Shown here piece by piece: positions 14,301 through 39,513 of a stretch of 47,713 bases of DNA; positions within the stretch are counted from its first letter, which is position 1, and the number at the start of each line of letters is the position of its first letter. The notes beneath the pieces are model-generated. The model saw only the letters and a list, made by a program, of their open reading frames with translations, was not told the DNA's origin and did not search any database. Origin of the DNA: Rhizaria sp. SCN 62-66 (taxonomy: Eukaryota); the NCBI GenBank assembly GCA_001724265.1, contig MEDY01000228.1, positions 1-47,713 of the forward strand, given 5' to 3'. Both the position numbers and the translations under genes were made by a program.

Positions 14301-16164
14301 CGCGGGCGCGACTGCCGGCGCAACAGTGACGGCGCCGCCGACTGCAACCGCGGGCGGAGTGACTGTGAGTAACGGGGTGACTGTGAGCACCGCTGAGCTG
14401 CTGCAGGCCGACTCCGCAGGCGGTGCGCTGTCAAACGTGTTGTTGGCGCGCGACCCAGTTGTTGAGCGCGTAGTGCTGAATGCGCTACCGCTGTCGACTG
14501 ACGCGGTCGTGAGTTCAGTGCGGCTTGGTATCGACATGCGCACACTGCCAACGTTCTTCAACACTCTGTTCCAACAAGAGGTGTCTGCGCTGCTCGGCAT
14601 TGATGACGACATCTGCCGCATTGCAGTCGTCAAGACTGAGCGCGTACTCGCGTCAACGCCTTACCCCGAGTATCAGACGATCGATCTGCTTTCAATGAAC
14701 AGCAACGCACACGGCCATAGCATGAGCACTGCGTCTGCGCTGAGTGATAGCGCTGCAGCGCGACTAACTGATCGCATTATGGCGCGCTTTGACCAAGATA
14801 ATGGCCGCGCCGCTCCCACTCAGAACAGCGGCACCGCCGCGCACACTGCTGCGTCAACTGCCGAGAGCGGCGCTGGTCGCGTCTTCAACACAGCGCAGGC
14901 GGGCGCGAGCGGTGGCGCGGGCGCGCGCCGCGTGCTTGTTACATTTGCTATCTTGCCTCCCACCAGCGGCGCCGCGCTTCGCTCCGCCACGCGCGCTGCT
15001 AGCACAAGCGTCGACAATGCAAGCGCGGCGGAGCTGCTATCGTGCTCCGAGACGCCCGCGCGCTTCTTGAGCGGCGCGAGTGCGACTGACTTGCATAAGA
15101 TGCTGTCGAATGCGTTCGAGTTGGCGCAACCATCGTCGTCGTTCTCAATCTTTAGCGCAAACTCGAACAGTGCAAGCAATAACGGTAACATCAACACGAT
15201 GCGTACAATGAGCGCGAACCCCGACATTGCTCACAGCCACAGTAGCGAGCCCGATAGCGCGCATCAGAACAGCTTTGCCGCGCTTGCCGCTCGCGCCCGC
15301 GCTCAAGGTCTGAGTCACAGCTCCGGCCGCACGCACACCCACTCCACACTGGCGCTTCCCGCGCTGCTGCCTCTATCCGCGCTGATTATGACGCAGGCCG
15401 ACCCACAGCACCGCCCGCCGCGCGCGCTGACCGCAGCCACACTGTGCTCCGACGGTCTGTACAAGCTTATCTGCAACAGGAGCTTTAACAGGGCGGCTGC
15501 GCTCGCGTCGCTTGCTACAGTCGCCGCTACAGGTGCGACTACAACAACAGCTGGCAGCGTGTAGACAACCCGAAGCGACGACTCTAGCCCCAGCTCCAGC
15601 GCGGCATCAACAACTGGCACAAACACTTATCCGGCCACCGACAGCACGAGTAACGACGTGAGCAGAGACAACAGTGCAAGCGGTGACAACGGCGGCAGCA
15701 ACAACGGCGTTGGCAGCGGACTGGGCGTCGACGGCGAGTCCCTCTTCGGCGACTCGTTCTTCAGCAATTACCTCGCCAACCTCAACCGCAACGGCAGCAC
15801 CACGAACAAGGTGAAGCACGCGATTGATTTTGTGCAGGGGCTCAGCTACGGCATTATCGCGCTTGCGGGCCTTGCTGCCATTATTGCGGGCGTCGCGGGC
15901 TTCTTGGCCTGTCGCCGCTCTGCGAACGGTCTCAACAGAGAAAATCACGGCAGCACGAGCAGCAACAGCGTGAGCCATATCAGCAACAACGTGAGTCTCG
16001 ACGGCGTCACCGGCGAGGAAGGAGAAGAGCTTGCGTTGGCACAGAGACCCAGCGCGCGTCCGCCGCCCGGATACGTGCGTCCGGGGGCGCCCGCAGTGCC
16101 CGCGGCGGCGTCGGAAGACGGCAACTTGGAGCTCTTCGAGATGGCCAGACGCGGAGATTTATAA
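8357..16164 (+). CDS. Large subtilisin-like S8 serine protease (KP-43/Dictyostelium Tag-like) with PA insert, EGF-like domain and C-terminal TM; join(8357..9025,9151..10458,10597..13099,13280..16164), ~2454 aa including an in-frame TAG at 15562-15564
   Basis: Hydrophobic signal-like segment (ITFVGLLVLFAQCCFAA) and prodomain-like GDYLPQNTYHV. Catalytic triad motifs VAVADTG, DGHGTHTSG and QGTSMAAP, plus SNSWG, FFAAGN, FSSRGPTKDGRLKPDVLAPG and PSAALVKALLV. PA motif LVRRGNCRFTVK and EGF-like CPNACSGRGQC...CVCSGPWAGADCS. TM segment GIIALAGLAAIIAGVAGFLAC lies after the TAG; if TAG terminates, the CDS ends at 15564. Confidence 0.88.
9026..9150 (+). other. Intron 1 of subtilisin gene (125 nt, phase 0)
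   Basis: GCG|GTATGT...TGTTAG|CTG. Of the three nearby AGs I checked, this is the only one that keeps the frame. Confidence 0.75.
10459..10596 (+). other. Intron 2 of subtilisin gene (138 nt, phase 0)
   Basis: CAA|GTACGT...GCTAAC...TTACCAG|GCT. Splicing gives SNSWGDQ-AGLYDSFARAVDKF. Confidence 0.9.
13100..13279 (+). other. Intron 3 of subtilisin gene (180 nt, phase 1)
   Basis: G|GTACGT...TCTAAC...TTCTTCAG|GT. Splicing restores the EGF motif CPNACSGRGQC. Confidence 0.9.
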
Positions 16165-16570
16165 CGCATATAGCACGTGAGCCCGTGTGAGAAAACACAT
16201 TTTTTGAAGATAAATTATCAGTTAATGTAAATAAAGCTTTGTTTTGCATCGATAAAATGCGTTTTTAAGTCCGTAACGCGCGACTTCTATCTCCACCACA
16301 AACAAGTGCAACGGTCCGACAGACAGCTGGCGCCAAGCGGCTGGGCGTGCTTGGCTGCGACAGTGCGCCACGAGCGCATTTTATGAAACCTGAATCCTGC
16401 CTTATCCCGTCAACATTTTAGAATGTCGCCTATTTTCACAAATGTTATAATTTCACGAGAAAATATAATTTCAATTAGCACCCTAGTTTCTCACGACTAT
16501 AGCCCGCATTTTCGAATCCTAATTTTCGCGCTAACGACTTGTTTGCCCGTCGTCGTTTGCTTCGACGCAG

Positions 16571-18243
16571 ATGGTCTGCCCTTTCACCGAGGCAGTCCCC
16601 TTCTTCGGGTTCAGCGTCCCCACATGGAGTGCGCTCCCCATCGTCTTCACGACTGTGATCGCGATCGTCCTGTCTAAGGGCCTGATTGCCAAGTACATCG
16701 CCTTCATGGACCGCCCCGCTGTGCCCAGCAAGTCCACCGCTGACGGCTTCGGCGGCCCCATCGGCGCTTTCTTCATCATGCACTTCCTCCCGTTCTTCCT
16801 CTACGCGCTCTACTTTTCCTGCAACGCCGACCAGGTCGTGAGCCTGAACCCCCTGAGCGAGGACTTCCTCGTCTTCAAGGTCAACCCCCTCGCGGACGGC
16901 CTCTTCGCCTTCTTCGACCGCGCTTTTTCCCTTAAGGTCACGCTCATCTACTCCGCCTGGGTCTTTTTCCACTGGTTCCTCTACCTCGTCGTGCCCGGCC
17001 CCGTTGTCGAGGGCACCCCGCTCAAGAACGCCCAGGGCACGCGCCTCCTGTACCGCATTAACGCCTTCCGCTGCAACATCGTGGCGACCAGCGTGGTCCT
17101 CGCGCTCGTCTACTTCGGCGTGCTCCCGGCCACCTTCGTCTACGACAACTTCCTCCAGTTTACCACGGCCGCCATCGTCTTCTCCGTCTCCTTCTCCGTG
17201 CTGCTGTACGCGTGGTCGCGCGTGGCCGTCCCCGACAACGCCGTCGGTTACAACCCGGGCGACGCCAACCCTCTGCACCAGCTCTCGCACACGGGCAACT
17301 CGACCTGGGCCGTGTATGACCTCTGGATGGGCCGCACGCTCAACCCGCGCCTGGGCTTCATCGACCTCAAGTACGTCTGCGAGCTGCGTCCCGGACTCCT
17401 GCTGTGGTCCCTTATGAACTTCTCCTTCGCGGCCTCGCAGTTCGCCAAGCTGGGCTATGTGACGCCGTCGATGGCCCTCGTGTGCCTGTTCCACGCCTAC
17501 TACGTGCTTGACTCGCACCTGCACGAGCGCGCGATCCTCACCACCATGGACATTACTACCGACGGCTTTGGCTTCATGCTCGCCTTCGGCGATCTCGCCT
17601 GGGTCCCCTTCACCTACACCCTCCAGGTACACTATCTTTGAAAAAACGCCTTTTAAGTGAGACATATATATGTTTACGTTTTTTTTTTGTTTTAAATGCA
17701 TAATTGACAATACTGTACATGATAATATTGTTTTATCAGTGAACACTATGCATGTGCGCTCACAACATCGCGTGTTGTCTACATAATTTTTTTTCTACCC
17801 TTATCTAGGCTCGCTTCCTTGTTGACTACCCCACCACCCTGTCGCCCCTCGCGCTCGCCGCCATCGTGGCGCTGAACCTTGCGGGCCTGTACATCTTCCG
17901 CTCGGCCAACTCGCAGAAGAACCTCTTCCGTACCAACCCCTCTGACCCTGCTGTCGCCGGCTTGCGCACCATCAAGACCAAGACGGGCCGCTCGCTGCTC
18001 GCCGACGGCTGGTGGGGCCGCTCACGCCACATCAATTACATGGGCGACCTCATGATGGGGCTCGCCTGGTGCCTCCCCACGGGCTTCTCCACGCCCATCA
18101 CATACTTCTACATCGTCTACTTCACCTCGCTGCTGCTGGGTCGCCAGATGCGCGACGACCAGAAGTGCAAGGAGCAGTACGGCGAGGACTGGGACCGCTA
18201 TTGCGAGATGGTGCCCTACCGCATCATCCCCTACGTCTACTAA
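16571..18243 (+). CDS. ERG24: Delta14-sterol reductase (ERG24/TM7SF2/LBR family), join(16571..17626,17809..18243), ~496 aa
   Basis: Motifs GRTLNPRLG, DLKYVCELRPG, MDITTDGFGFMLAFGDL, YTLQARFL (spanning the intron), ANSQKNLFR, GWWGRSRHINYMGD and DDQKCKEQYG. The conserved C-terminus VPYRIIPYVY is followed directly by TAA. Confidence 0.95.
17627..17808 (+). other. Intron of sterol reductase gene (182 nt, phase 0)
   Basis: CAG|GTACAC...TTATCTAG|GCT, AT-rich, joins conserved YTLQ-ARFL. Confidence 0.92.
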
Positions 18244-18786
18244 GTCAGCAAATGCGGACATCACTGCACTGTTTAAATTAGGCAACGCTTTCGCCAATAT
18301 AACGGAAGTAATTTGTGTGTTTTTACAAGACATGCGTTGTTCTACTACATTCGAGTTGGATGTAGCAACATCTGGTTCTAAACCTAGAGTATGCTTGATG
18401 CTTGCTGGTTGTAACGTAGATAACTAGAGGTGCTGTGTAAGTGCCTGTAGTGAGCTTGCATTTGACTGATGCGCATTTATACGTCAGTTATATTATATTT
18501 CTATGAATACAGATCTAAAAACAATTATATTCACAATCTTTAGTTGCCGTTTCGGAGATTTTGTTTCAATGTTAGACAGTATTCAATGGATAGTACGTAC
18601 GTACGAATTGAATGAGGTATTTATGAAATTAGATAATACTTTTGTATTCCAATCACTGGCCTTATTGAAACGTTTCACTATGAAATAAGCGTACGAATAT
18701 CCAATGACGGTCATTGCCGATCAAAAATTGTCGCACAGTGACGCCAACTTCTTGACGGTGATGAAAGTACATACTTCAGCAGTACT

Positions 18787-19908
18787 TCAGAACTTCCACC
18801 CCATCTCGTACTCGCGCGGCTTCCCCGCTTCCCTCGCCTCCACAGCGAACGCCCTCACGGCCTCCGCCTCCGCCTCGGCCTCCGCCTTAGCCTTGGCCTC
18901 CTTGGCTTCCTTCGCCTCCCTGGCCGCCGCGGCGAGCGCGTTGCCCGCGCCCGCCGCCGCCTCGGCAGCCGCCGCGTCGCGGGCCGCGCGGAACTTGCCC
19001 AGCGCCGCCAGGTAGCTCTCCAGCGCGGGCGCGCCGCTAAAGATCCCGTTGGTGGCGGCGCCGCACACCGCGCACTTGGCGTCGCCGCCGGTGAAGCGCG
19101 CGAGGGCGCAGCGCTCGCAGAAGAAGTGTTTGCATGCGGTCGCCACAGGAGCGGCGAAAGGATTACTGCAAAGCGGGCAGCGCTCCGGAAGCTTGAGCGG
19201 GTTCGGCACGGCCGCCTCGCCGCCCAGCTCGGCCGAGACGGCGGCGTTGGGCAGCGCCAGCGCGGCGGTCGCGGCGGCCGAGGCGGCGGCGCGCGCAGCC
19301 TGCTTCTGGTTCCAGTCGGCCTCGACCTGCGCGCCGGACTTGTACCGCGCACGCTCGTGCAGGAACTTGCAGTTGTCGCCCCAGCGGCAGCGGCCCGAGT
19401 CGCGGTAGTCCTTGCACACGTCGGGCTGGTGGTCGTACTGCGAGATGCCCGCGATCGTGGTCGACTGGCGCATCGGGCCGGTGCGCAGCCACTTGGGCCT
19501 GTCGCGGTCCTCGGCGCGTGTGATCGGGTCCACCTCGTCCACGGCGGCGTCGCGCTGGCGGGCCGTGTCACGCTCGGCAGAGAAGGTCGAGGTCACGCCG
19601 CCGACGGGCGCCGCGGCCGCTGCGGCCGAGGCGGAGTCGGTCGTGCGGGTCGAGCCGCCAATCGCGGCCGCGGCCGCAGTTGCCAGCAGCGGCCGGCTGC
19701 GCTTGACCGTCGGCGCGATATCACTGCTGTCCGCACTGATGGCCGCAAAAGGGTCCGTGGCAGCTGCGGCAGCGTCGGCAGTGGCGTCGGAAGGGGCTGC
19801 GGCGGAGGCAGAGTCGGCGAGCTCTTCGCCGTCAGTGGTGCGGGCCGTGTCGCGCTTGAGCTTGCGCTTCTTGAACACAACGGCACCGGAGGCGTCTTCT
19901 GAAGACAT
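18787..19908 (-). CDS. CWC24: Pre-mRNA splicing factor Cwc24/RNF113 (CCCH zinc finger plus RING), 373 aa
   Basis: VVFKKRK N-terminus. GPMR...YDHQPDVCKDYRDSGRCRWGDNCKFLHER (CCCH finger) and LPERCPLC...PVATACKHFFCERCAL...CAVCGAATNGIF (RING). Ends in TGA. Confidence 0.93.
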   Translation of the reverse strand: MSSEDASGAVVFKKRKLKRDTARTTDGEELADSASAAAPSDATADAAAAATDPFAAISADSSDIAPTVKRSRPLLATAAAAAIGGSTRTTDSASAAAAAAPVGGVTSTFSAERDTARQRDAAVDEVDPITRAEDRDRPKWLRTGPMRQSTTIAGISQYDHQPDVCKDYRDSGRCRWGDNCKFLHERARYKSGAQVEADWNQKQAARAAASAAATAALALPNAAVSAELGGEAAVPNPLKLPERCPLCSNPFAAPVATACKHFFCERCALARFTGGDAKCAVCGAATNGIFSGAPALESYLAALGKFRAARDAAAAEAAAGAGNALAAAAREAKEAKEAKAKAEAEAEAEAVRAFAVEAREAGKPREYEMGWKF

Positions 19909-20164
19909 TGTGTTTAAAATATGGTTAAAGAAAAAACGCGGGGTGTCTAAAAAACGCTATTTTAGCGCGCTTGACGATCAGATTTCGCAGATTGGCTTGG
20001 ACGAAATCCCCACCACACCCATTGGCACTTCCTCAGACTCCCCCCCATTGACCTTCCTTCAACTCTCAACTGGCAGTATTAGCAACGCTTCTAAACGAAA
20101 GGTCAGACAGATATCGCGAAGCCTAACTTGTATAAATTTGTTTTATGTTTGAATTTAGCTGAAT
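19909..20164. promoter_or_regulatory. Short (256 bp) divergent intergenic region, probable bidirectional promoter
   Basis: CWC24 (-) and the 20165 ORF (+) start head to head. The spacer is AT-richer than the exons and has two AAAAAACGC copies. The call is positional inference only. Confidence 0.4.
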
Positions 20165-20851
20165 ATGCTTCAGAACGGCCGCATTGTGGACTGGGCCCGC
20201 ACCTTCACGGCTGCCGCGACGGCCGAGTTCGAGTCCGATCCCACCTCCACGGCCCCCCGGGCCTCCGCAACGATGCCCGCGCAGCTCACCGAGCTCGGCG
20301 TTACTACCGAAGAGTGGACTGCAGCGCTTCCGCTATTGTATGAACGCGTTTCGCTCAAATCCCGCATCTCTGAGCTCTGCAAAATGATCGAGGCAGAAAA
20401 TTGCGACAACGATAACTCTAACAAGAACGGAGACGACAACGATGATGCGACTGAAGCAGAGCCCAGCGCGGCCCAGCGCGAGTATACGGCACTCTCCGAG
20501 GCCTGCGAGCGCAACTTCGCGGATATCCAGGCCAAATTCCCCGTGTTCGAGTGCATCGACGGCTGCATGGACTGGCTGCCCCCCGCGTGGTCCGACTGGG
20601 TCGACGGCCTCGCCCCGCAGCACGACCTCGCCGGCGCGCTCTTCGCGGCCGCCGCGCTGCGCCGCGTGCTGCTGCTCCGGACGCGGGGCACACACTGCAA
20701 CCTCGCCGCGTCGCCGCCCGACAGCGCGCTGCCCCCCCGCGTCAAGGAGAGCGACGACGCCGCGGCCATCGAGGGATATCAGACGACGGCGGCGGACATT
20801 GCGCCGTATGTGGTCGAGTGTGGCGAGGACGAGGTTGAGTACTACGACTGA
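20165..20851 (+). CDS. Hypothetical protein, 228 aa (5' end uncertain)
   Basis: GC3-biased ORF with globular-looking composition, bounded by AT-rich DNA and ending in TGA. No motif recognised. An acceptor-like site at 20158 may indicate an upstream exon or leader. Confidence 0.65.
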   Translation: MLQNGRIVDWARTFTAAATAEFESDPTSTAPRASATMPAQLTELGVTTEEWTAALPLLYERVSLKSRISELCKMIEAENCDNDNSNKNGDDNDDATEAEPSAAQREYTALSEACERNFADIQAKFPVFECIDGCMDWLPPAWSDWVDGLAPQHDLAGALFAAAALRRVLLLRTRGTHCNLAASPPDSALPPRVKESDDAAAIEGYQTTAADIAPYVVECGEDEVEYYD

Positions 20852-21583
20852 GATAACGGTGCAGAGACCGTTTTGACAGAGATGTACGAGTGAATGTGAC
20901 AGCGATAGCGTTTGTGGTGAACGGGAGACTGTTTAGAATACCTTAGATATGCACAGGTTAACGGGGGATGATTGCGAGGGCCGACTATCTGCTTTAATAT
21001 CGCTACCTATAATACAGTAATTTATGTTGTTGAGTCTCAAAGTCTTTGTTGTGGCCCATTTTGACTTGGTTTTTAAGTAATTTGCGCTGTGACACTCCTG
21101 CTCACAGTCGGGCCCAACGGTGGCGCATCGTCACAGTTGAATGTGCAAGCTGCGAACAGAGATCTGACCGCCAAAACAGCAGCCATGCATTGCATAGTTT
21201 TATGCAACGATATTGGTTGCGGTAGTTTACTCCGTTTTTTAATCTCCGCTGCGCCTGACGGACGAGAGCACTTACAGAGTCCTCGTTTAATTAAACGACT
21301 TCTCCGGTTGCCATTCACCACACTCACTCTGCCGTTCACTACACTGGTGCTCACTCCTTCGCTTTTGCTCCCTTCTTCCCGCAGTGTCGCACCCTTTAGC
21401 ACGCTAATAGCTCTTGACTAAGCGCGTTTCTGTCCGGTTACAAGCGCGTCTCCTCCTTCTGCGCGCGCGCGCCGTTGTCCAACACCCAGGCCGGCCCGCA
21501 GCACTAGAGATAGCTCCAAACTTTCTCCTGCTTGCTCGCCTTCCTCAGCTTCTTGCTTCCAGCGTTGCCGTTGCTGTTGCTCG

Positions 21584-24500
21584 ATGCCGTCCTCTGGCGC
21601 CTCGATGCTCGGCACGCCCGCGCGCCGCCACCTCAAGGACAGCGCCAGCAGCTCTGCCGACAACGCCGCCGGCAGCAACAGCTCAGCCTCGGCCTCTGCA
21701 GCGGCGGCGCAGCAGTCGTCCTCGCTCTCCGGCCCCGCCGGTGTGCCCCACGCCGTCAGCAGTAGCGGTACGGGCTCTTCTGGCACGCGCCTGGGCCGTT
21801 CGTCGAGCAACAGCAGCCTCGGCGGCGGCTCGGGCGCGCTGGTTGAGGACGAGGATGACCCGCTCCTCAACGAGGGGAGCTATAGTAGGTCCTGGTGGTG
21901 CCTTCGCATCTTCCGCAACCCGCCGCTAGTGGAGCGCACCGTGCTCTACAACATTGGCGGCGGCGGCAGCGGCGGCGCTGGCGGCGGCGGCCTCAGCGGC
22001 CTCGGCGGGCTCGGTGGTGGCGGCTCGCATGCCGTTCTCGCCAGCTCCAGCCTCTCGTCTTCGCTCCTGTCGCAGTCCTCCGCGCTCACCGGCGGCGACG
22101 GCGGCGGTCTCGCGTCCGACAGCAGCGACGCCCCGGCCTCGGCGGCGGCGCTGGCGGCGTGTCCCGCGCGCGTGTCTGTTGAGCCCGCGCTGCGGTATCC
22201 GCCCAACACTGTGTGTAACCAGAAGTACTCGGTCTTGACCTTCCTGCCGCTGTTCCTCTTCAACGAGTTCCGCTTCTTCTTCAACCTGTACTTCCTCGTC
22301 GTCGCGCTTACGCAGTTTTTCCCCGTGCTGCAGGTCGGCTTCCTCTTCACCTACGTCGCCCCGCTGGCCATGGTGCTCGTGGTGTCCATGGTCAAGGAGA
22401 TCTACGACGACTTCCAGCGCTTCCTGCGCGACCACGCGGCCAACGGCGAGTTGTTCGAGCGCGTTTCCCCCACGGGTATCGTGGAGCCCGTGGCGGCCAA
22501 GGACATCAAGGTCGGCGACATCGTCGTTCTGCACACTAACCAGCGCGTGCCCGCCGACTGCGTCCTGCTGCGTACCCACGACGCGGCCGGCAGCGTGTTC
22601 ATCCGCACGGACCAGCTCGACGGCGAGACGGACTGGAAGCTGCGCCGCGCCGTGCCGACCACGCAGGCGCTGCCCGACGAGGCCGCGCTCGTCCGCATGC
22701 GCGCGCGGCTCGTCGCCGAGGCGCCCCGGCTCGAGATCTACGGCTTCGCGGGCGTGCTGACATTTTTCGGCATGCAGCCCGGGTACGAGCCGCCGCGTTC
22801 GCTCACCACGGCCAACAACAGCAACGCCGTCGGCCAGGGCAAGGGCAAGGGCCAGAAGCTCAAGGTGAAGCGCTCGGCCGGACTCCTGGCGTTCGCCCCG
22901 GCGGGCGCCGACGCCCACGCGCACGGCAGCAAGACCAAGCGGTCCGGGAGCAAGGGGCAGGGCGCCCGTCTGACCAACACCGACGACGACGACAACGACT
23001 CCGACAGCGACGACAGCGACGACGACGAGGAGGAGGATGGCGGCGACGTCGAGGCGCCTAAAGCCACCGCGGCCGCCGCGACGGCGAGTGCGACGGCGAG
23101 TGCCAGCGCGGCCGTGCAGAGCTCGATGGGCGCGACGGAGCCGCTGTCGCTGGAGAACACGCTGTGGGCCAACACCGTCGTTGCCTCGGGCACCATCGCG
23201 GCCGCTGTGATCTACACGGGCCGCGAGACGCGCTCGGCGCTCAACGCGTCACAGCCGGTCACCAAGTCTGGTCTGCTCGACGACGAGGTGAACCAGCTGT
23301 CCAAGGTGTTGTTCGGCATCACGATGCTACTAGCGCTCGCCATGACTACGCTGCGCGGCTTCGAGGGCCAGTGGTACATCTACCTCTTCCGCTTCGTGTT
23401 GCTCTTTTCATCCATTATCCCCATCTCGCTGCGCGTGAACCTGGACATGGGCAAGGCGCTCTACTCGCTGCTCATGATGCGCGACGCCGAGATCCCCGAG
23501 ACCGTGGTGCGCAGCTCGACCATCCCTGAGGAGCTGGGCCGCGTGTCCTACGTCTTCACCGACAAGACCGGCACGCTCACGCAGAACGTCATGCTCTTCA
23601 AGACGGTGCAGCTCGCGCCACAGCTGACCTACGGCCGCGAGCAGCATGACATCCTTAAGCGCATGCTCAGCGGGGCTTACGCCAAGCCCGGCACCTCCGT
23701 CCAGGCGCTCGAGGAGGCTGAGGCGGCGGCCGCGGCGGCCGCGGAGGCCGGCATTACCGCCACCCCCCACTCGCTCACCATCGCGACTGGCGGCGGCGCC
23801 AGCGGCGGCAACGCCGGTCTTAAGACCAGCGCGAGCGGCAGCGGCAGCGGCGGCGGCGGCAGCGGCGGCGGCGGCGGCGGCGGCTCTGCGGGCACGTGGT
23901 TCGCGGACCCCGAGTCCGACAACGACACCGACTCGTTCAGCGTTACCATCGCCGGCACCGACACAGGCTCGAACGCCCACACCAGCGTGGGGTACGACTA
24001 CGACCCGTTCTCCTCGGGTGCCCGCGTCCGTAGCGCTAGCAACAGCAACAGCAACAACAACAGCAGCGGCGCGCTCGGCGGATTCCAGACCGAGTCTTCC
24101 TCTCTCTCTCTCAGCTCCAACGCCAATGCTGCGCACGGTGCCGGTGCTGCGGCTGCGGGCGGCCTGCTGCAGTCGGAGTCGGCGACGGAGCTGGCGCTCA
24201 CGCGCTCGCAGTCTGCGCTGGACGCGGCCCGGCGCACGACGCGGCGCGCGCACGAGTTTGCGGCTACGGTCGAGGGCGCCGGGATGAGCCTGGGCGAGGC
24301 GCACGCGCTGACGCGGGCCGCGTTCGAGGCCGTGGCGCTATGCCACAATGTGACGCCCGTGACCGAGGAGGGCTCCGCGGGCAAGACCTTTCAGGCGGCG
24401 TCGCCGGACGAGGTCGCGCTCGTGTCCTACGCCGACTCGGCCGGGCTGGGACTCGAGGCGCGCGACGTGCAGACCATCACGCTGCGCGCGCCGACGGGCG

Positions 24501-26062
24501 AGCTGGAGACGTTCGACATCATCGTCGATTTCCCCTTCACCTCGGAGTCGAAGCGCATGGGTATTATTGTCCGTTCGCGGACCACGCGCGCCGTGACCTT
24601 CTACCTCAAGGGCGCCGAGTCCGCGATCATCCCACGTATTGAGCCCTCGGAGTGGCTCGAAGAGGAGGTCGCGAACCTGGCCCGCGTCGGGCTGCGCACG
24701 CTGGTCTACGCGAAGCGCTCGCTCACCGAGGCCGAGCTGGCGGCTTTCATGTCCCGTCTGGCCGTGGCTAAGGCGTCGATGGCGAACCGCGAGGCGCAGG
24801 TGTTAGCCGTGCTCGACTCGATCGAGCGCGGACTTACTCTGCTCGCGCTCACGGGCGTCGAGGACAAGCTGCAGGAGCACGTGCGGCCCTCGCTCGAGAT
24901 GCTGCGCAATGCGGGCGTCAAGATCTGGATGCTGACCGGCGACAAGGCCGAGACGGCGGCGTGCATCGGCATTTCGGCGCGCCTCATCGACCGCGGCCAG
25001 AGTATCGTGCGCGTGTTGCAAGCGACCTCGCGCGTCGACGCGCTGCGGCAGCTGGGGCAGACGATGTCGCAGCCTAACGCGTGCATCGTCGTCGACGGCG
25101 GCTCGCTGCAGCTGCTGCTGGACCACTTCCCCTGGGACTTCCTCGACGCTGCGAGCCAGGCGCCCGCGGTGATTTGCTGCCGCTGCTCGCCGACACAGAA
25201 GGCCGACGTGGTGACGCGCATGAAGGCCTACACCGGCAAGCGCGTGCTGGCCATCGGTGACGGCGGCAACGACGTGTCGATGGTGCAGGCCGCCGACGTC
25301 GGCGTCGGCATCGTCGGCAAGGAGGGCATGCAGGCCGCCATGGCTGCAGACTTCTCTATCACGCAGTTCTCTTTCCTGGTCCGCCTCATGCTCTGGCACG
25401 GGCGCAACTCGTACAAGCGGTCCGCCACGCTGTCGCAGTTTGTGATGCACCGCGGGCTGATTATCGCGATCATCCAGGCTGTTTTCTCGTCGCTCTTTTT
25501 CTACGTCGCCGTGTCCATCTACACCGGCTGGATCATGGTCGGCTACACCACCATCTTCACCATGTTCCCAGTCTTTTCGCTCGTGCTCGACGAAGACGTG
25601 GACCCCACCACCGCGTTCATGTTCCCCGAGCTCTACCGCGAGCTGCAGAAGGGCCGCCCGCTGTCGTACAAGACCTTCTTTGTGTGGTGCTTCCTCTCGG
25701 TGTACCAGGGCGGACTCATCATGATCCTCGGCATTCTGCTCTTCGAGGACTCGTTCGTCAACATCGTGTCGATCACCTTCACGGCGCTTATCCTCGCCGA
25801 GCTGGCCAACGTCGCGCTCTCGATCCACAAGTGGAACCCGTACATGGTCGGCGCGCAGGTGCTGTCGATCATCTTCTACTTCGTCTCCATGGTCGTTTTG
25901 CGCTCCTACTTCGATATCACCTTTATCTTCACGCTGCTCTTCATGTGGAAGGTCTGCGTTATCACCGCCGTCGTCACGCTGCCACCCGCGCTGCTTAAGT
26001 GGGCCATCGACCGCTACGACCCGCCCGCGTACTCGAAGGTCTCGCTCGCCGGCCGCGGTTGA
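21584..26062 (+). CDS. NEO1: P4-type ATPase phospholipid flippase, Neo1/ATP9 (class II) subfamily, 1492 aa, intronless
   Basis: Motifs YPPNTVCNQKYS, TDQLDGETDWKLR, IIPISLRVNLDMGK, RSSTIPEELGR, DKTGTLTQN (phospho-Asp), QAASPDEVAL, TGVEDKLQ, WMLTGDK and IGDGGNDVSM, followed by C-terminal TM helices. Ends in TGA. Confidence 0.96.
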   Translation: MPSSGASMLGTPARRHLKDSASSSADNAAGSNSSASASAAAAQQSSSLSGPAGVPHAVSSSGTGSSGTRLGRSSSNSSLGGGSGALVEDEDDPLLNEGSYSRSWWCLRIFRNPPLVERTVLYNIGGGGSGGAGGGGLSGLGGLGGGGSHAVLASSSLSSSLLSQSSALTGGDGGGLASDSSDAPASAAALAACPARVSVEPALRYPPNTVCNQKYSVLTFLPLFLFNEFRFFFNLYFLVVALTQFFPVLQVGFLFTYVAPLAMVLVVSMVKEIYDDFQRFLRDHAANGELFERVSPTGIVEPVAAKDIKVGDIVVLHTNQRVPADCVLLRTHDAAGSVFIRTDQLDGETDWKLRRAVPTTQALPDEAALVRMRARLVAEAPRLEIYGFAGVLTFFGMQPGYEPPRSLTTANNSNAVGQGKGKGQKLKVKRSAGLLAFAPAGADAHAHGSKTKRSGSKGQGARLTNTDDDDNDSDSDDSDDDEEEDGGDVEAPKATAAAATASATASASAAVQSSMGATEPLSLENTLWANTVVASGTIAAAVIYTGRETRSALNASQPVTKSGLLDDEVNQLSKVLFGITMLLALAMTTLRGFEGQWYIYLFRFVLLFSSIIPISLRVNLDMGKALYSLLMMRDAEIPETVVRSSTIPEELGRVSYVFTDKTGTLTQNVMLFKTVQLAPQLTYGREQHDILKRMLSGAYAKPGTSVQALEEAEAAAAAAAEAGITATPHSLTIATGGGASGGNAGLKTSASGSGSGGGGSGGGGGGGSAGTWFADPESDNDTDSFSVTIAGTDTGSNAHTSVGYDYDPFSSGARVRSASNSNSNNNSSGALGGFQTESSSLSLSSNANAAHGAGAAAAGGLLQSESATELALTRSQSALDAARRTTRRAHEFAATVEGAGMSLGEAHALTRAAFEAVALCHNVTPVTEEGSAGKTFQAASPDEVALVSYADSAGLGLEARDVQTITLRAPTGELETFDIIVDFPFTSESKRMGIIVRSRTTRAVTFYLKGAESAIIPRIEPSEWLEEEVANLARVGLRTLVYAKRSLTEAELAAFMSRLAVAKASMANREAQVLAVLDSIERGLTLLALTGVEDKLQEHVRPSLEMLRNAGVKIWMLTGDKAETAACIGISARLIDRGQSIVRVLQATSRVDALRQLGQTMSQPNACIVVDGGSLQLLLDHFPWDFLDAASQAPAVICCRCSPTQKADVVTRMKAYTGKRVLAIGDGGNDVSMVQAADVGVGIVGKEGMQAAMAADFSITQFSFLVRLMLWHGRNSYKRSATLSQFVMHRGLIIAIIQAVFSSLFFYVAVSIYTGWIMVGYTTIFTMFPVFSLVLDEDVDPTTAFMFPELYRELQKGRPLSYKTFFVWCFLSVYQGGLIMILGILLFEDSFVNIVSITFTALILAELANVALSIHKWNPYMVGAQVLSIIFYFVSMVVLRSYFDITFIFTLLFMWKVCVITAVVTLPPALLKWAIDRYDPPAYSKVSLAGRG

Positions 26063-26506: not shown

Positions 26507-27850
26507 ATGTCGGACGGCGCCCGCGACGACAACACAGACGCGTACGACGACTGGCGCAGCTCCGCCGCCTTTGCCGCGTCCCACGCGAGCATGCGCAGTC
26601 TGCGCGAGTGCCTCAAGAACAACGACGTCTTCGGCGTCCCCGACATGGGCGCAATCCTCCGCGCGCAGCAACAGCAAGAAGAGCAACAGCAACAACAAGA
26701 AAAACAACAGCCTGCAGACGCGAATCCAGAGGGCTCAGATAGCAGCAGCAGCAGCGCGGCGGCCGCCGCTGCGCCCCCGACGCTGCCGGTGCTGAGCGCC
26801 GTGGGCGTGTTGTCGGCGGCGACGGCGCTGAACGACGACGCGCTCTTCGCATCCCGCACGGCCCGCAACCCCCGTCGCACGCTGTCGGACCTGCGCAGCC
26901 TCGACATGAACCCCGGCAGCGCTAACCCCGGCGGCGGCACTGCGGCGGCGGGCGGCGCCGGCAGCGTGATGATGCCGTACCGGTCCGGCGCCGCGTCGTC
27001 GCTGCTGCTGCCGCGCCGCATCCTCGGCTCCCCCCACCATGCCAGCAGGGGCGGCAACAACAGCAATGACGACGATAGCTACGGTAACGTGATGCCGAGC
27101 TCCAGCGCGGTTGCGGGCGCGGCGAGCGGGATGTCGTCTTTGTACGGCTCGGCGCTGGACCTGCTGCTGCAGTACGCGCCGCCGGTCCGGCCGGGCGCGT
27201 CGCGCGCGCCCGCGGCTCAGGTGCGTCTCGATCTGTAGCGGTTCATTTAATCGAGTATATGTCGTCAATAGTCACTTTGCACGGGGATCATGTCAATGAA
27301 TTAATATTTAATTTGTGGATTTTTTATCTGAATTCGCTCTACTTATCCATGTATTCGTTATATATCGCGCGCTCACGCCCCTTTGTTATCATATTCTATG
27401 TGGCATTCAAACCTACTGTCTAACATTCCACACACACGCACAGGGCCGTTACGCGCTGGCCCCCGACGCGGCCCGCGCCCTGGACGCGCCCCTGCCGCTG
27501 TCCTTTGCGCTGTCTCTGCCGGGCACCCCAGTGCCCCTGACACCTCTAAGGGCCGACGACGCATACTACTACTGCGGCGCCACCGCCTCGCTCGATATCG
27601 ACTCCGACGCCGACGCCGCTCAGCCGCTATTGCTGCAGCCCTTGCAGCCCCACTCCAACGCCCCCGGCTACGGCTGGCGCCACGCGAGCGAGGTTGCGCG
27701 CGTGGCTTGCCCCGCCGCTGTGAACAGGCTGCTGGGGCCCGTAGCCTTGACGACCGTGCAGGGCTCCATTTCTAACTCCAGCGCTAATCCCAACTCTAGC
27801 TCTAGCGTGAACTCAGACTTCGCGTCTAGCTCGTCCAACAGCAGCAGCAA

Positions 27851-31145: not shown

Positions 31146-34100
31146 TCACTCTTTGGAGCTCTTAAAATCTTCCGACAAGAAGTACGCAACAGCATCATAC
31201 TTGTGAATAGCCGCGTCAAATGTCCGCGTGGACACCGCACCCGAGCGCACGAGTTCCTTCAAGTGTTCGCGCGCCGCATCGTCGGTCATCTGCCGTTGCC
31301 CCAACACACGCAGCAACACAGTCAGTCCAAGCGGCGGCGGTCCCGCACCCGGCCGCGCCGCCGACGCGATCATCGCCAGAATATCCGCCGTGGGCTTCTT
31401 CATCAGCGTCAACAGCATGCCGGTCTGAACCGCCTCTGGACAGGCCGCAAGCACGCGCACGTCAACCTCTTCCTCAAACGCTTGCAGCAGGTTCGTCACG
31501 TCGGTATCAACAATCCCGCTCGCGTCCATCGGCGAGATCGCGCGCGCGCCAAACACCAGCACCCAGAACAGCGCGCGGTGCGTCTCAGCGTACACTGCGG
31601 CGGCCGCGGCGGCGAACAGCGCCTCCGGTAGCGCGGCAGACAGCGCGTCAAGCGCTGCGTCGAGCTTCGCAATGAAGCGGCCGGGGCCCTGCAGCGAGCC
31701 CCGCAGCGGCGCGGGCAGGAACGCAGTGTCCAGCAGTTCCGTCCGCAGGTCAACGTAAATCAGCCGCGCCGCCAATTGCAGCAGCAGCGCCTGTCGCGCT
31801 TCCGCAGCAGCCGTCACGGCCGCAGCGAAGGGGCCCGAGACGGCTGGCGCGGCCGAGCCGCCGCCCCGTGACCGCTGGCCGATCGCGCTCACACGAGCGC
31901 GCACGGGCGCGGGCGCTGGTGCGGGCAGGAGACGCGTAAGCACGCCCACGGCCGCCGCAGCGGTGACGGTGGCGTTGGTCGTCGCCATGGCTGAGGCGAT
32001 CACCTTGCCGGCCTTGGTCTGCGGCGCGCTGGCACCGACACTCGCGGCGCTGTTGGCGGCCGCGATGGCGGCGGTGGCGGCGGCAACCGCGGGCGGAGAC
32101 AGCCAGTGCGCGAGCGCGGGCTTGTAAAGCCCCGCAGCCGACGGCACTGGCGCGCCCCACGCCTGCAGCCCGGGCGCACCGCCGTCGCCGGTGTGTGAGC
32201 CCGCGTCGGCGTCAGCGCGCGCCATGGCGCCCGCGGCGGCCTCGACGGCGAGCCGGTGGACCCACTCGCCGTCCTTGACAGGCCAGCCGTCCGCGGCCGC
32301 GCAATCCAAGGCCGCGGCGCTATCGCCGCGCGCGTCAGCCGCCGGGGCCCAAACCTGCGCGCCGCCGGCCGCCAGCGCCGCGCCCCAGTGCTCCTCGGCC
32401 GCCGCAGCGAGCGCGGGCAGCGCGTCGGCGGCGTCGGCGACGGCCTTGAGGCGCGCGCACAGCACGGCCACGGTCGTCTCGGGCGCGGTGAGCCGCGTGA
32501 CGCCCGCGGCGCGCGCAGCAGCCAGCGGCGGCATCGGCACGGGCCGTGACGTTATCTGCAGGTTCGCGCCGCCGAGGATGGTGGACTTGCGCTTTGGGAT
32601 CGGCGCGACGCCCTTAAGCACCGCGGGCCGCAGCGCCTCGGCCGCGCGCGCGCCGCCGCCCAGCGCCGCGACGGCCGCAAAGAAAGATGACAACACGCGC
32701 GCGCACGCCTCGGCCGCAGCAACGGGGATGGCCATCGCCCACGCCCCGCCCGCCGCGGCCACTTCACCATGTGGCGAGGTCGCGCGGCCGCTCATCGACA
32801 CCGCGGCGGCGTTGGCGGCGGCCAGCGCGCGCCGCAGCAGCATTACCGTGTCGTCGCCCGCAGTCGCCTCGCCGCGCGCCCGCTTCGCCTCGCCCTTGGC
32901 GGACTGCGGCGCGGACGGCTGCGCGGGCGGCGCGAGGAGGCGGCCGGAAGCGACCGCGAATGCGCCCGCGTACGCTGGGCTCAGACTCAGGGCGCCGCCG
33001 GGCAGCAGCACGGCGTCATCGCGCAGCGCGCGTGCGACGGCGGCGGAGAGCGCGCCCTCGAGCCGCGCCTGCCAGGCCGCGATGAGCGCCGCGCTCAGCA
33101 GCGGCAGCGGCGGCGCGGCGGCGGCTAATGGCGCGAGCGCGTGTGGCGGCAACGCCAAAGCGCGCGGGGCCGCGGTCAGCGCTGCGGACGCAGCGGCGAG
33201 TCCCGCGAAGGCCGGCAGCGCGCCGTGGGGAAGCGCGCGTGGCAGCGCGGGGGCCGGCGTGGAAGTGCCGCCGCCGACGCTCGCGACGCCATCAATGACC
33301 TGTGTTACGGTGACGACTGTGGGAACGGGGACGGAGGCTGCAGCGCCACCGGAGCCGGAAACAATCGCTGGCGCAGAGACAGGCAAAGTCGGCAGCGCAA
33401 GCGCGGCGACGGCAAGGGCGTCGTAGCGCAGCAGTGCGGCCCAGCCTGCAAGCGCACCGAGCGAGCCTGGCAACGCAGCTTGCGCGGCAGACGCGAGAAC
33501 GGCCACCGACGCAGCGCGCGCAGCGAGCGCGGGAGTCACACCGCGCGCGCGGGAGGCGAGCCACAGCGACACGCGGTGACGCGCGCCGTGCGCGGGCGTC
33601 AGCGTCAGGGTGTGCGTGCGCTCTGCAAGCACGGGGATGCCGGGCAGCAGAGGCACCACAGACGTGGAGCTAGCGGATGTAGAATGAGGCTTGCGTTCGC
33701 GCGCCGTGTAGTTGTCCGCAAGCGGATCACGGTCGTCGTCGTTGTCATCGTCGTCGTCGTCAGAGTCGTTGTTCTTGTTGTCGTCGCTGTCATCGCCGGG
33801 CGCGCCATCGCCGCCTTCGCTCACTGTGACAACGACCTCGAGTGTGGCACGCGCCTCAGTCAACGCCTGTGCACGCATCGCGGTCGCGACCGCAGTCTCC
33901 GCCGCGGCCAGAGCGCGCGCTGCGGCGGCGAGCTCGTCCGAGTCCGCCGTCGACGACAGCAGCGCGCGCGTGCGCACAGATGCGCGCGCCGCCGCAGCCG
34001 CCCTGCGCCCGCCGTCGCTCGGCAGCGCACACACCGCCGCCGCACGCGCACGCAGCACAACGGGCGCGGGCGCAGAGAGACGCGGGTCCGCCGCCAGCGC

Positions 34101-37100
34101 CACAGCGGCAGCAGGCAGTGTAGCGCCTGAGGGCAGCAGCGCGCGCCACTGGGCGGGCACAGTCGCGAGCGCTGCCGTGGCCGCTTGTGTGGGCGACTGA
34201 GCAGGAGTGCCACCGCTACTCGTGGCAGCAGTCTCAGGAGCGACACAAGCCAGCGTCTTAGCGAGTCCCGAGAGCGGTGTCAGGAAGGCGCCGTCAGGCA
34301 GCACGGAGCGCGCACGTGCAGGCGGTTCCAGCAGCGGCGGCAACGGCGTGCCATCTGCCGCAATCTCACCAGCAGCGACTTTCTTCTTGGCTCCGCTGTC
34401 GCTGACGCTGGTCGTATCGTCACCGAGGAAATTGGCCAGATCGACCTCACCTTCGTCATCGTCCGCGGCTATGTCGTCATGGCCCGCCGCAGCTGCAGCG
34501 GCCTTGGCAAAGCCGCCGCCACTCTTGATGGCGGCTACAGCGCGCTTGCCGGCCTTGCCGCCCGCGGCGACTGCGGCGATCGCAGCAGCGGCGGCGACGC
34601 GGTCGGCGCGCGGGAACGCGGCGTCGTACGCCAACGCGGCAGACACAGCCGCAAGTGTGAGCGCAAGGCGGTCGCCCGCATCAACGGCGGCTGCTACTGC
34701 TGCTGCTGCGGCGGCGGCCTGGGCCTGGGCCGTGGCAGCCGCCGCGGGCGCAGTCACTCCGGCAGCTGCGAGGGCAGACGCTGCGGTCGACAGCGCGCGC
34801 AGCAGGGCAGCGGCAATGCCGGCGTGCGAGGTCCGCGGCGGTGCGCGGGACAGCAGTGCAGTGCCTCCGCGACTGGCAGCGCAGATATTCGAGGTTGTGC
34901 TCGAACTGAAGCCTGAACTAGAACCAGAGCTTGAACCATTGTTGGCGTTGGGCTTGCGAGGAGTCTTGGCGAATAGGTTCGCAAACGCGGCGTTGCCGTC
35001 CTCATCATCGCTATCGGCCGCGGCAGCGCTCTTGGCGGCTGGCGTCGCAGCGGGTGCATTGCTGCTGCCACCGCTGTTAACGCCAGCGAGTGTGCGGGGA
35101 GCGGAGCAAACGCGCCCGTTGATGCGGAGACGCCAGAGACAGTCAGACGCCTCTTCGTCAGCGCAGTCACGCGCCCATGACGCAGGCGCTGCAGGTGGGC
35201 CACGCAGCCGCGGCGCAGGCGCGCTGCCAGCCACCCCAGCGTGCGTCGCGTCCCAGCCCGAGGGAAACAGCGCGGACGTGGCGTCCGCAGTGGTCTCCGA
35301 AGGCACGGACACGCCCTGTGTGGCGTTTGCCGCGGCCAGCGCGCCCGCGCCACCGGGTGCGTTGTTCTCGGCCGCAGTGGGCTCCAGGCGCGGTGCGTCG
35401 TTGCAGTCCGCGACGGTCGTATGATAGCGTCGCATTGCGCTGGCGAGCAGCCAGAATTCGACCGCACCGCACGCCGCGTCTGCCGCAGCGAGCGCGTCAG
35501 GCTGGGCGTCGGCAAGAGCGCGCGCCGCAGTGATGTACAAAGGCACTACCGACGGCGCAGCTTCCAGGTCACCGGAGAAGGCCACGGACGCGCGACGCAG
35601 TGGCGCAGCCGCGGCCGCAGGGAACGACGGCGCGCAGGCCGGCGGCAGCGCCCAGAGCCAGGGCCCGGAGAGACAGTCCGCGTCGAGCACCTCCGTCTCA
35701 GAGAGCCGGTCGCCGCGGACCTGCGACAGCCACACACGGCGGCCCGCGGCGGCGGCGGCCAGCGCGCACGCAGTGGGGCTGACGCCGAAGCCCGGTGCCG
35801 CCCGCGCCAGCAGCGCAAACACGCCCAGTGCGGCGGTCCGCAGCTGCAGCACCGGACCGGGCTTGGCCAACGAAGACTCGCCCTTGTCAGTAGCAGCCGT
35901 GGGACTGTCCTCGTCGCCGTTGCCGGAGCCGCCACCACGCTTGCCGTGCGACTTGCCGCCGGAGCCCTTCTCCTTCTTGTCCTTGCGTTCCTTGCGCTCA
36001 CGCTTGTCCTTGTCCTTCTTGCCCTTGCCGCGAATCTTGCTAGTCTCGGCCGCGGTCGGCGTGGGCGCGACAGCAGTTGTGCCGTCATCGTCGTCGTCAT
36101 CGCCGTCGTCGCCACCCGCATCGTCACCGTCGCGGTCAGCGTCCTCGAGCGCCAGCTCGTGCAGCCACCACAGCAACGCGCGGCCCAGCTGGGGCGGCAC
36201 GCCGGCCCAGCGTTCGCCCGTGGCAGCACTGCCCGCGCCCGCAGTCGGGCTCTTGCTGGGAGACGCGGTGTCGAGCTCGCTGCCGCTGGAGCGCGCGGGC
36301 ACGGGCTCGGCCTCGGTCGCCGCGCCCAGCGCAAGCAGGCCGGTCAGCACGCGCTGCAACGGCGCCCGCATCGATCGCGGCGCACGCCATGCGCCCTCAA
36401 CAACAACGCTTGAGTTAGCACCGAGAGCATGAGTAGTTTCATGATCCTCATCGTCGTCGCCATCGGTGGTCTCGTCAGCTCGCGACTGGCCGTCAGAGCC
36501 GAGCCTGGCAATAACAGCGTCAAGCTCAGTCACGGACGCCGCAAGCGTCTTCGCGCCGCGCCCGGCGGCCTGCTTGACGCTCGCAGCGGGCTCAGCGTTC
36601 TTCGCACCGGCGATGGGGGTGAACACAAGCACGACGTCAGACTTCTCGTCTTCCTCCATCAAACGTGCGGTCCGCGCCAAACGTGCACGCAGCCAGCGCA
36701 GCATGGCACCGCGTGCGGCCTCCAGCGCGGACAGCACGGCGCCACATTGCTGCAGCAGCGTACGCGCCGCCGCAGCCACCGTGCTCACGTTCGCTCGAGT
36801 CTCGTCATTGAGGCCAGGCAGCAGCAGGACATCGAGGCCGCCCGCCTGCCAGCCGCGCGCCGCGCTGAACGCGCCGGCGCCGCTCGACGCACTGGCAGCA
36901 GCCACAGCGTTCGCGGCAAGCAGCACAGCGGCGGCACGCAGAAAGCCGAGCTGTTGCAGCGCCCACATGGCGTATCCCGTCGAAGCGTGCACCGCGCCCG
37001 CCTCGCGGCTCTGCACGCGGCCGCGCGCGAACGCGTCTGCGCTCACGGTCACCGCGCGCAGCAGCGCAGCAGTCGCAGGACCGAGCAGCGCCGTGGCCGT

Positions 37101-39513
37101 TTCGTGCGCGGCTGCGTCGCCCGCAGCGCCCGCGCCGAGCGCCTCCGCGGGCGCGCAGAGCATCGCGTGCACGCGCCAGGGCAGCGCGGGGGCCAGCCGG
37201 CCGGCGCCCGCAGCGGAGGCGCGGTCGAGGCTGATGCCGACGCCCTCTTCCAGCGCTTCGGCGGCCGCGGCCAGCGCCTCGCTCGCGCCCGCGGCGTCAA
37301 TGGGGCTCTTGCCGGTCTGCGCGAGCACGACCGCGGCGGCGGACTCCGCGGCGCGCGCCGAAAGCCGGCCGCCGAGCTGCGCCAGCCACTCAGACTCTGG
37401 CGCGGACAGCGCGGGCGCGGCGAGCGCGAGCAGGCGCGCAGCCAGCGGCGCACGCGCGCAGGGCGCAAGAGACCCGCCGGCCGAACGCGCGCGCATCGGG
37501 GCGGCCGTTTGCAGCCGCAGCAGGCGCAGCAGCGACGGCACGCCCACAGGCGGCACCTCGGGCGCGGCGCCGGGCGCAACAGCGACGCCGGACTTGACGA
37601 GCGCAGAGCCCATTCCGGCACCGCGTTCGTCGCCTGGGCTGCTGCTGTTGCCAGTGCCGGAGCCCGAGCCTGCGGCCGCGGTGGCAAGCAGCGCCTGCTC
37701 AGCAGCGAGCGCGCGCCACGCGGCGCTCGGCAGGGCCCAGCCACTCACCGTGCTGCTCCCGGTGCCGTTGCTACTCGTGCTGCTGGCAACGTTACTCGGC
37801 GCAAACGGGCAGTCTGAGTCAAAGCCCAGCGCCGCCCGCGGCGCAGGGCACTCCGCTGCGGGCTGCGACGGAGGCAGCGCGAGCACCCAGGTCAGCGGCG
37901 GCGGCACCGTGTCCGGCAGCGCCAGCGCGCCCGCCGCAGCGGCCACGCCAACGCCGGGCGACGGCGCCTCGCTCGCTGCTCTGGCGCCAGCGCTTGAGCC
38001 CGCACTGGCGCTGGCACTGGCGATGGACTCAGCGGCTGCAAGCGCGGATGCAAGCATGTCTGAGCCTAGCGGGCGCGCGGCGGCGGCGCGCGCAGCGGCG
38101 GCCAGCGCTGCCGCAGCGCGCGCGTCTGCGCCCACTGTCGCGAGCGAGCGGGCGGTCTGCGCGGCCGCGGCAGGCGCGCCGGCAACGCCAGCGGCGGGCA
38201 GCAGCGGCAGCGCGAGCTCGGCGGGTGGCGGGCGCGCGGGCAGCGCAGTGGCGGCGGCGGAGGAGTAATACTTGCATCCTGAAGCCAGCGCGGTCACGGA
38301 CAGTGCGGAGACTGCAACGGTGGCGGCGGCCGCGGCGGCCGCGGGCGCACGAGAGCTCGCGCGCATCGGGCCTTGCCACTGCTGCAACGTCGCTGTCGAC
38401 GTTGACACTGACGTCGAGGTAGCAGCAATCAAGGACGAAGGTGCGGAGGAGGAGGAGGAAGTGTAAGCAGAAGGGGTGTTTAAGGGGGCGCGACGCGAAG
38501 CTTCCACGCGCGAGACAGAGCCGTTAGAGCTCTGCCCCGCAACGCGGGCAGCCGCCTCAGCGGACCCCCTAGAGGTCTGCTCGCGCGGCTTAACTTCGTG
38601 TCCGACCCCGGCCCCATTTCCCGAAGCTGTGGATCCCCCTTTCTTGTCGTCTCTAATTCCTCCTCCTCCTCCCCCTCCTCCTCCTCCTCCTCTGTCATCA
38701 TCGGCGTCGTCAGCGTCGTTCTTGTCCTTGTCACCGTCATTGCTGTCGTCACTGTCGTCGAAAGGGTTCAGTCCGTCGAGCGCAGACGGCGCGGCAGGCA
38801 TGTCCATGCTGTCGTCGCTGTCGTCATCGTCGCTAGCAACAATCTTATCACGAGCTGTGGCGGACTTAACAGCAGCAGCAGCAGCAGCACCGACAGCGCC
38901 AGCAGCAGCGGCATCGTTGCTATTGTTGTTGTTGTTGTCAGCGTCTGACTAGTCTTCCGAGACGATCTCGACGTCGTCGCCATCAATGCTCTCAACTTCG
39001 CCGTCATCAGCGCCAGCAGCCACGGCACCAGCAGCGCCCGCAGAAGCAGGCGCACCAGCGGTAGCAGGGGCGGCGCTATGATGGCCGCCGTCGTCGTCGC
39101 TGTCGTCGAAGGGGTTGCTCGCCCCGGCAGCGGCAGCGCCAGCAGAGACAGCAGTAACGGCGGCCGCAGCAGCATCACCAGCGGCAGCAACAGCGGCGGG
39201 CGGAGCAGTGATCCTGCTCTTAGCGGTCACACTGCTGTCGACATCCTCAACCTCCTCACCGTCGTCATCAAACGGGTTACTCTTGCCTTCCTTGCTCTTG
39301 TTGATGCTCTTGCTCCTGCTCACATCGCGCGCGCTAGCAGCAGCGGCAGCACCGGCGGTAGCGCCGGCGGCGACGGCAGCGGTGGCAGCAGGGAACTTGG
39401 GCTTGGCGAACGGGTTCACGGCAGGCACGGCCGGGGAGCTATTACCATCATCGTCGTCAGAGTCGAAGGGGTTCGCGCTGCTGTTATTCGCAGCCGCAAC
39501 CGCAGTGGGAGCC

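Follow-up and report, generated by a model that had tools for sequence, protein, structure and literature searches.

Two in-frame TAG codons in a GC-rich contig from wastewater communities suggest that UAG is a rare sense codon in an uncultured eukaryote

Introduction

Nuclear genetic codes in which UAG has changed its meaning whilst UAA is kept as a stop codon were first documented in 2017, and the published accounts place them in a handful of lineages (PMC5304391; PMC11687900). Here we describe a stretch of nuclear DNA of 47.7 kb, contig MEDY01000228.1 (positions 1 to 47,713, deposited as Rhizaria sp. SCN 62-66 and called the window below), in which a subtilase gene (gene A) and a giant gene with NPF repeats and a PATROL1-like end (gene B) each contain one in-frame TAG, termed TAG1 and TAG2. 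A first-pass annotation, made from the letters of the window, had proposed that UAG is decoded as an amino acid in this organism and had called codes of this kind very rare, naming exLh and Iotanema spirale. Both examples stand, and with the phyllopharyngean ciliates such codes are less rare than it supposed (PMC11687900).

The organism exLh, which the annotation described as an uncultured rhizarian, is more exactly an insect-dwelling sainouroid rhizarian, its name standing for ‘ex Lygus hesperus’ (PMC5304391). According to that report UAG encodes leucine and UAA and UGA are stops; 384 in-frame UAG codons were counted in 71 genes, many of them at conserved leucine positions, all in-frame stop codons were UAG, and the gene ends comprised 56 UAA, 15 UGA and no UAG. 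The window resembles exLh in that its in-frame stops are solely UAG and its genes end at UAA or UGA (4 and 7 here, against the reported 56 and 15), and in that its P4-ATPase adjoins the only named rhizarians in our tree, which are phytomyxeans and not Sainouroidea. It differs in having only two UAG codons in about 13,000, neither at a conserved position, and in belonging to a very GC-rich genome.

In Iotanema spirale, an anaerobic metamonad of the Fornicata, UAG is reported to encode glutamine, supplying about 8% of glutamine codons, and UAA is the main stop (PMC5304391). There too UAG is uncoupled from UAA and is a minority codon, and its example demonstrates that reassignment is compatible with rarity of the codon; proof of the meaning came there from a transcriptome, at conserved positions, whereas the window offers two linker codons. 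Three lineages of phyllopharyngean ciliates are described in which UAG encodes leucine or glutamine, UAA is a stop and suppressor transfer RNA (tRNA) genes have been identified (PMC11687900). These share with the window a change limited to UAG that came to light through metagenome-derived eukaryotic genomes, but as described they use UAG widely as a sense codon, whereas here the codon is rare and the window holds no tRNA gene. Genes seemingly broken by an in-frame UAG are also a feature of filamentous ascomycetes, where restorative A-to-I editing of premature UAG codons yields full-length protein (PMC4817773; PMC10776026; PMC11156358). As these papers present it, such editing occurs at hairpin loops, is specific to developmental stages, is found in ascomycetes only and coexists with normal TAG terminators; in the window there is neither a hairpin signal at the two sites nor a TAG terminator.

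Results

Two TAG codons lie within continuous reading frames

On the plus strand, TAG1 (15562..15564) lies in a Ser/Thr-rich linker of gene A and joins the open reading frame (ORF) 13264..15564 to the ORF 15565..16164 in a single frame. TAG2 (38949..38951, minus strand) lies among the acidic NPF repeats of gene B and likewise joins two ORFs in one frame, 38949..41150 and 31146..38948. Both codons had been placed at these coordinates and in these frames by the first-pass annotation, correctly in each case. A codon-usage score was trained on three of the window's confidently identified genes, and by this score the best frame is identical upstream and downstream of each TAG. The two other frames contain stops, numbering 1–5 per 60 codons around TAG1. 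We discarded an open frame on both sides as a criterion: 154 stop codons in the window are flanked on both sides by at least 50 open codons in some frame. Openness alone proves nothing in DNA as GC-rich as this, and the case therefore rests on homology, motifs and frame.

Contigs from four sequencing runs were compared with positions 8000-19000. Two of the runs, X3 and X4, belong to two studies, neither of which is the likely source of the window, and in each one contig spans TAG1 with 0 differences from the window (X3 record 6, 14723-15597; X4 record 13, 15285-16125); no variant at TAG1 was seen among the matches listed for the four runs. For TAG2, metagenome contigs of the Joint Genome Institute were scanned with the flanks of the codon, the codon itself being left free. 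This returned one contig of 2042 bases, L001, which has TAG at the site and is identical to the window at 2042 of 2042 bases. Both TAGs are real DNA and not assembly errors.

The exons of the window are GC-rich, in contrast to its AT-rich introns and spacers. Four introns have been verified; they are 138–223 nucleotides long, have a GC content of 0.29–0.39 and carry GT..AG ends. Cryptic introns that would remove either TAG were considered and rejected, as every in-frame GT..AG stretch able to do so has a GC content of at least 0.54. The 150 nucleotides downstream of TAG1 and TAG2 have GC contents of 0.60 and 0.55, against 0.34–0.49 for the 11 gene ends in the window. Neither TAG lies in an AT-rich intron or spacer, as the annotation had also held.

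Fold energies of 51-nucleotide windows around the TAGs and of the 120 nucleotides after them do not stand out from those of shuffled controls (z 0.15, -0.46, 1.17 and -0.69), and the two codons that follow also differ between the sites (ACA ACC after TAG1, TCA GAC after TAG2). Of the sequence features of editing sites, every UAG has a U at position -1 by definition, and no hairpin at either TAG is significant. In the polyA run X6, contigs flank TAG1 only, at 14872-15205 and 15942-16205, the latter running over the TAA at 16162, and no X6 contig spans any splice junction within 8000-19000.

A membrane-anchored subtilase gene extends across TAG1

Gene A is encoded on the plus strand. An exon at 9151..10458, its 5′ limit provisional, holds the first half of a Peptidase_S8 domain (PF00082 profile positions 1-128) and ends at a 5′ splice site at 10459. 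The exon at 10597..13099 holds the rest of that domain (profile positions 127-256), a PA domain (PF02225) and the start of an EGF-like cysteine motif, with a splice site at 13100. The Pfam scores, 73.6 and 30.5 bits for PF00082 and 46.4 bits for PF02225, all exceed the cut-offs. An intron of 180 nucleotides (13100..13279, GC 0.29) precedes the last exon (13280..16164), which comprises a conserved extracellular domain, the linker with TAG1, a membrane helix and a tail, and closes at a TAA (16162-16164) followed by AT-rich sequence. The transmembrane helix is predicted at 15841..15915, with a Kyte-Doolittle maximum of 2.5 at residues 858-876 of the 13282 frame. Joining 13099 to 13280 recreates the EGF-like cysteine motif, which is uninterrupted in the two long homologues described below, and this assigns exon 13280-16164 to the subtilase gene.

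To find the homologues, the last exon was read under translation table 15 and compared by HMMER with all 1.84 billion representatives. This gave seven matches, two of them the window's own fragments and two of them long homologues: P0126 (2751 amino acids, E 1.5e-48) and P0127 (1429 amino acids, E 5e-32), both at 36% identity. A word-based search with the same exon returned nothing, probably because it was swamped by low-complexity words. P0126 and P0127 are each encoded by a single ORF, and in both a conserved domain ending in Cys-x-Asp-Gly is followed by a Ser/Thr/Asn-rich linker, a hydrophobic helix with basic residues, and a tail. The order of gene A is that of its homologues throughout: Peptidase_S8, PA, EGF-like motif, conserved domain, linker, membrane helix and tail. 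TAG1 falls in the linker, 29 residues past the last conserved cysteine motif and 93 residues ahead of the helix. In the 199 codons beyond it the first methionine comes only 8 codons from the end, so that there is no usable start; this part has a coding score per codon of 0.339, compared with 0.205 upstream, and a GC content at third codon positions (GC3) of 0.75. Judged against its homologues, gene A continues through TAG1 as a single gene, and the full, anchored protein would need TAG1 to be decoded.

The same layout of EGF-like motif, conserved domain, linker and helix recurs in a set of giant membrane-anchored subtilases of 1,400–2,770 amino acids, each in a single ORF (P0126, P0127 and P0131-P0133), encoded on metagenome contigs that derive from further uncultured eukaryotes. 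A piece of gene A beyond TAG1 (15661-16161) is already public as a separate protein of 168 amino acids, P0124, with a forced start; gene calling under the standard code thus fragments the genes of this organism.

An NPF-repeat gene extends across TAG2

Gene B (31146..41045, minus strand) begins at an ATG at 41045 and ends at a TGA at 31146-31148, within a frame of 3,335 codons. TAG2 is codon 699 from the ATG and is followed by 2,600 stop-free codons. Nine NPF motifs lie in an array at 38760..39782, where 0.06 would be expected from composition. Eight of these stand 277 to 55 residues upstream of TAG2 and the ninth 61 residues downstream, and all but one share an acidic tail. Acidic NPF motifs are the kind that bind EH domains. 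Near the C-terminus, 2,370 codons downstream of TAG2, is a PATROL1-like (MUN-type) TPR region (31368..31841; PF25761, E 3e-05); its score of 23.5 bits is under the Pfam cut-off of 27, and we take it as a resemblance to MUN/PATROL1 only. The GC content around TAG2 is 0.52–0.73 in steps of 100 nucleotides, whereas the genuine 5′ spacer near 41100 has 0.38; there is no AT-rich spacer at TAG2. An in-frame methionine 54 codons past TAG2 is compatible with an independent start.

The motif array and the continuous frame indicate that gene B is a single gene running through TAG2, and a full protein combining NPF repeats with the MUN-like region would need TAG2 to be decoded. The annotation's claim that each TAG sits inside one gene is thus borne out, by the architecture of the subtilase homologues for gene A and by the array straddling TAG2 for gene B. 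From its N-terminus the product of gene B would consist of a Cys-x2-Cys...Cys-x2-Cys segment, the nine acidic NPF motifs, about 2,000 alanine-rich residues and the PATROL1/MUN-like end, a domain combination for which we found no description.

Gene ends in the window use TAA and TGA

The window has 11 gene ends, of which four are TAA (133 on the minus strand, 16162, 18241 and 30804), seven are TGA (1885, 6141, 18787 and 31146 on the minus strand, 20849, 26060 and 45521) and none is TAG; this independent recount agrees with the first-pass count. Two of the 11 are anchored by the C-termini of homologues and the other nine by the AT-rich sequence after them. The ERG24 gene (16571..18243, plus strand; two exons, with an intron at about 17627-17809) serves as the control for TAA, which coincides with the protein end of all eight homologues checked. 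The NEO1-type P4-ATPase gene (21584..26062, plus strand) is the control for TGA, which coincides with the end of P0002, a relative of 79% identity. From these homologue ends, each in one gene, TAA and TGA are genuine stops, as the annotation had argued. The TGA at 4318 lies beyond a 5′ splice site and is thus intronic, not a gene end. Besides TAG1 and TAG2, just one TAG terminates a well-scoring ORF (27236-27238), and it falls within an intron of 223 nucleotides (27221..27443, plus strand; GC 0.39). No in-frame TAG occurs in the window's conserved genes, namely ERG24, the P4-ATPase, the S8 domain and RabGAP. If TAG made up 25–35% of stops, a share usual in GC-rich eukaryotes that use the standard code, the probability of finding no TAG among 11 ends would be about 0.04–0.01.

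The relative P0002 is recorded as an ORF of 1039 amino acids that starts mid-protein inside a low-complexity insert, without the N-terminal 440 residues. Such a start would be expected if the relative's gene had an intron or, upstream, an in-frame stop, which might be TAG.

The host organism and its occurrence

The window is eukaryotic nuclear DNA with a GC content of 0.51–0.78 along its length. Its recognisable genes encode a RabGAP-TBC protein, the S8 and PA subtilase, ERG24, a CCCH/RING protein, the NEO1-type P4-ATPase, an IBR protein and the giant PATROL1-like protein. In a run search with positions 9151-18243, at least half of the words were found in runs from three studies, labelled as bioreactor or wastewater apart from one that has no label, and smaller shares in runs of four further studies. 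The source organism is an uncultured GC-rich eukaryote of wastewater or bioreactor communities. Its nearest proteins are metagenomic, with identities of 79% for P4-ATPase (P0002) and 74% for ERG24; named relatives are more distant, at no more than 60% and 45%, respectively. Neither the genome contigs scanned (queries P0002 and alignment A1) nor the viral contigs (query P0135) gave DNA of the organism or of its 74–79% relatives.

A P4-ATPase tree was built with FastTree from 52 of the 120 listed matches, taking the named sequences that span the groups together with 16 unnamed ones and leaving out 68. The window's protein and its relative, both flagged for odd composition, fall in a clade of seven sequences with Plasmodiophora and Spongospora (local support 100) and apart from fungi. 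The only named rhizarians in this tree are phytomyxeans, and ciliate sequences are absent from it. The tree hints that the host belongs to Rhizaria, the supergroup of exLh, although a single gene cannot settle a deep placement. ERG24 was rejected as a marker for placement, its named matches having no more than 45% identity and being scattered over chytrids, Thecamonas, Capsaspora and Bigelowiella.

Run X4 also contains a second close strain or species beside the contigs identical to the window, with 17 differences in 1052 bases over the 3′ exon of ERG24 (within 16993-18357) and further variant pieces in exon 1; X3 lacks any such variants. In all four runs, depth spikes of up to 154x and many false joints occur at 13872-14605 and 18643-19000. 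They do not reflect this genome itself, but arise where GC-rich low-complexity coding repeats draw in contigs from other organisms.

Discussion

We consider it probable that UAG is a rare sense codon in this organism and that UAA and UGA end its genes. UAG would then no longer act as a terminator anywhere in the genome, and would be read as an amino acid by a tRNA with the anticodon CUA, by an eRF1 that has lost recognition of UAG, or by both, by analogy with the known UAG-only codes. A sense meaning throughout the genome would account for all the observations at once, and for their likeness to the pattern in exLh. The absence of unusual RNA structure at or after the TAGs argues against a readthrough signal specific to either site. 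The codon may be young or poorly translated, since it is rare and occurs only at unconstrained positions in linkers.

Several observations weigh against this interpretation. Its support consists of two TAG codons, both in unconserved, low-complexity linkers, and the sample of gene ends is small (n=11). At about 0.15 per 1000 codons, UAG is far less frequent than in exLh. ARAGORN found 0 tRNA genes in the window, no RNA contig of runs X6 or X7 spans TAG1, and the X6 pieces that flank it could be DNA carry-over. L001 may share its source sample with the window, and the codon score discriminates poorly between sense and antisense in this alanine-rich DNA. A truncated, secreted subtilase would also be biologically plausible. 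The annotation's observations agree with the evidence from the window, whilst its central claim, that this organism decodes UAG as an amino acid, is partly supported and is drawn from two codons, 11 gene ends and one contig. The annotation had also judged the amino acid not assignable, and this stands: both TAGs lie in unalignable linkers, no alignment places a residue opposite either of them, and two such codons cannot assign it. Guessing it from the neighbouring residues was tried and abandoned, as an acidic context at TAG2 and a Ser/Thr-rich one at TAG1 give no consistent hint.

The two sites might instead be recoded singly under the standard code, by restorative mRNA editing (UAG-to-UGG) or by programmed or leaky readthrough giving short and long forms, which we regard as unlikely. 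Both interruptions are TAG, the triplet described as favoured by fungal A-to-I editing (PMC4817773; PMC11156358; PMC10776026), and since no RNA contig covers TAG1 there is room for such editing. Set against this, 71 restored pseudogenes are reported in Fusarium graminearum (PMC10776026), beside which two in 11 genes would be a large excess. The ascomycetes that edit keep TAG as an ordinary stop, compared with none in 11 gene ends here, and the P4-ATPase tree does not put the organism in that group. It would make functional sense if gene A gave a secreted product that stops at TAG1 and an anchored one by readthrough. Fold energies no different from those of shuffled sequence, and codon contexts after the TAGs that differ between the sites, speak against such recoding, which would also leave the lack of TAG terminators unaccounted for. 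To our knowledge neither context matches a known readthrough context, and known readthrough extensions are short, unlike the 2,600 codons of gene B.

If both TAGs were ordinary stops, gene A would have been recently truncated to a secreted form, with its old anchor now 3′ untranslated region, and gene B would either have been recently inactivated or represent two genes, one with the NPF repeats and one with the MUN domain, the latter starting at the methionine 54 codons past TAG2; the lack of TAG at the 11 ends would be due to chance. That methionine speaks for the split. A nonsense change is also most easily tolerated in unconstrained linkers, and both sites fall in such linkers; a single-base change that creates a stop in a GC3-rich gene would mostly create TAG, and TAG would then account for 2 of 13 ends, an unremarkable share. 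The frame after TAG1, however, has no start and yet is open for 199 codons, for which the chance is estimated at about 0.0015 at this GC content; it keeps the linker, helix and tail in the order of the homologues and has the best coding score in the gene. In gene B the downstream codons are open and contain a recognisable domain, and the NPF array straddles the TAG. Neither TAG precedes an AT-rich 3′ untranslated region or promoter, unlike all 11 real ends, and TAG is the consensus at both sites in assemblies from other studies or collections. Two recent truncations among 11 genes, both fixed in the populations that several studies sampled and both with intact in-frame coding sequence downstream, are improbable, and we think it quite unlikely that the TAGs are true stops. 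The remaining probability lies with explanations that we have not considered.

A sense meaning for UAG, if confirmed, would make this organism a new member of the UAG-only codes, in a new GC-rich uncultured lineage with an unusually low frequency of the codon. The literature search, among the matches listed, gave no report of a UAG-sense code in a protist of wastewater or activated sludge. A more specific possibility, which we put forward tentatively, is that an unrecognised lineage, possibly rhizarian, has been caught at an early stage of the capture of UAG from stop to sense, when gene ends have already lost the codon and it is only starting to reappear in unconstrained linkers. Each new UAG-only code tests whether the evolution of eRF1 and of tRNAs can separate UAG from UAA. 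Early capture, if true, would provide a natural snapshot of UAG uncoupling from UAA, with an amino acid that could differ from leucine and glutamine, and a GC-rich protist, not a ciliate, with very rare UAG would be the closest approach yet to an intermediate stage.

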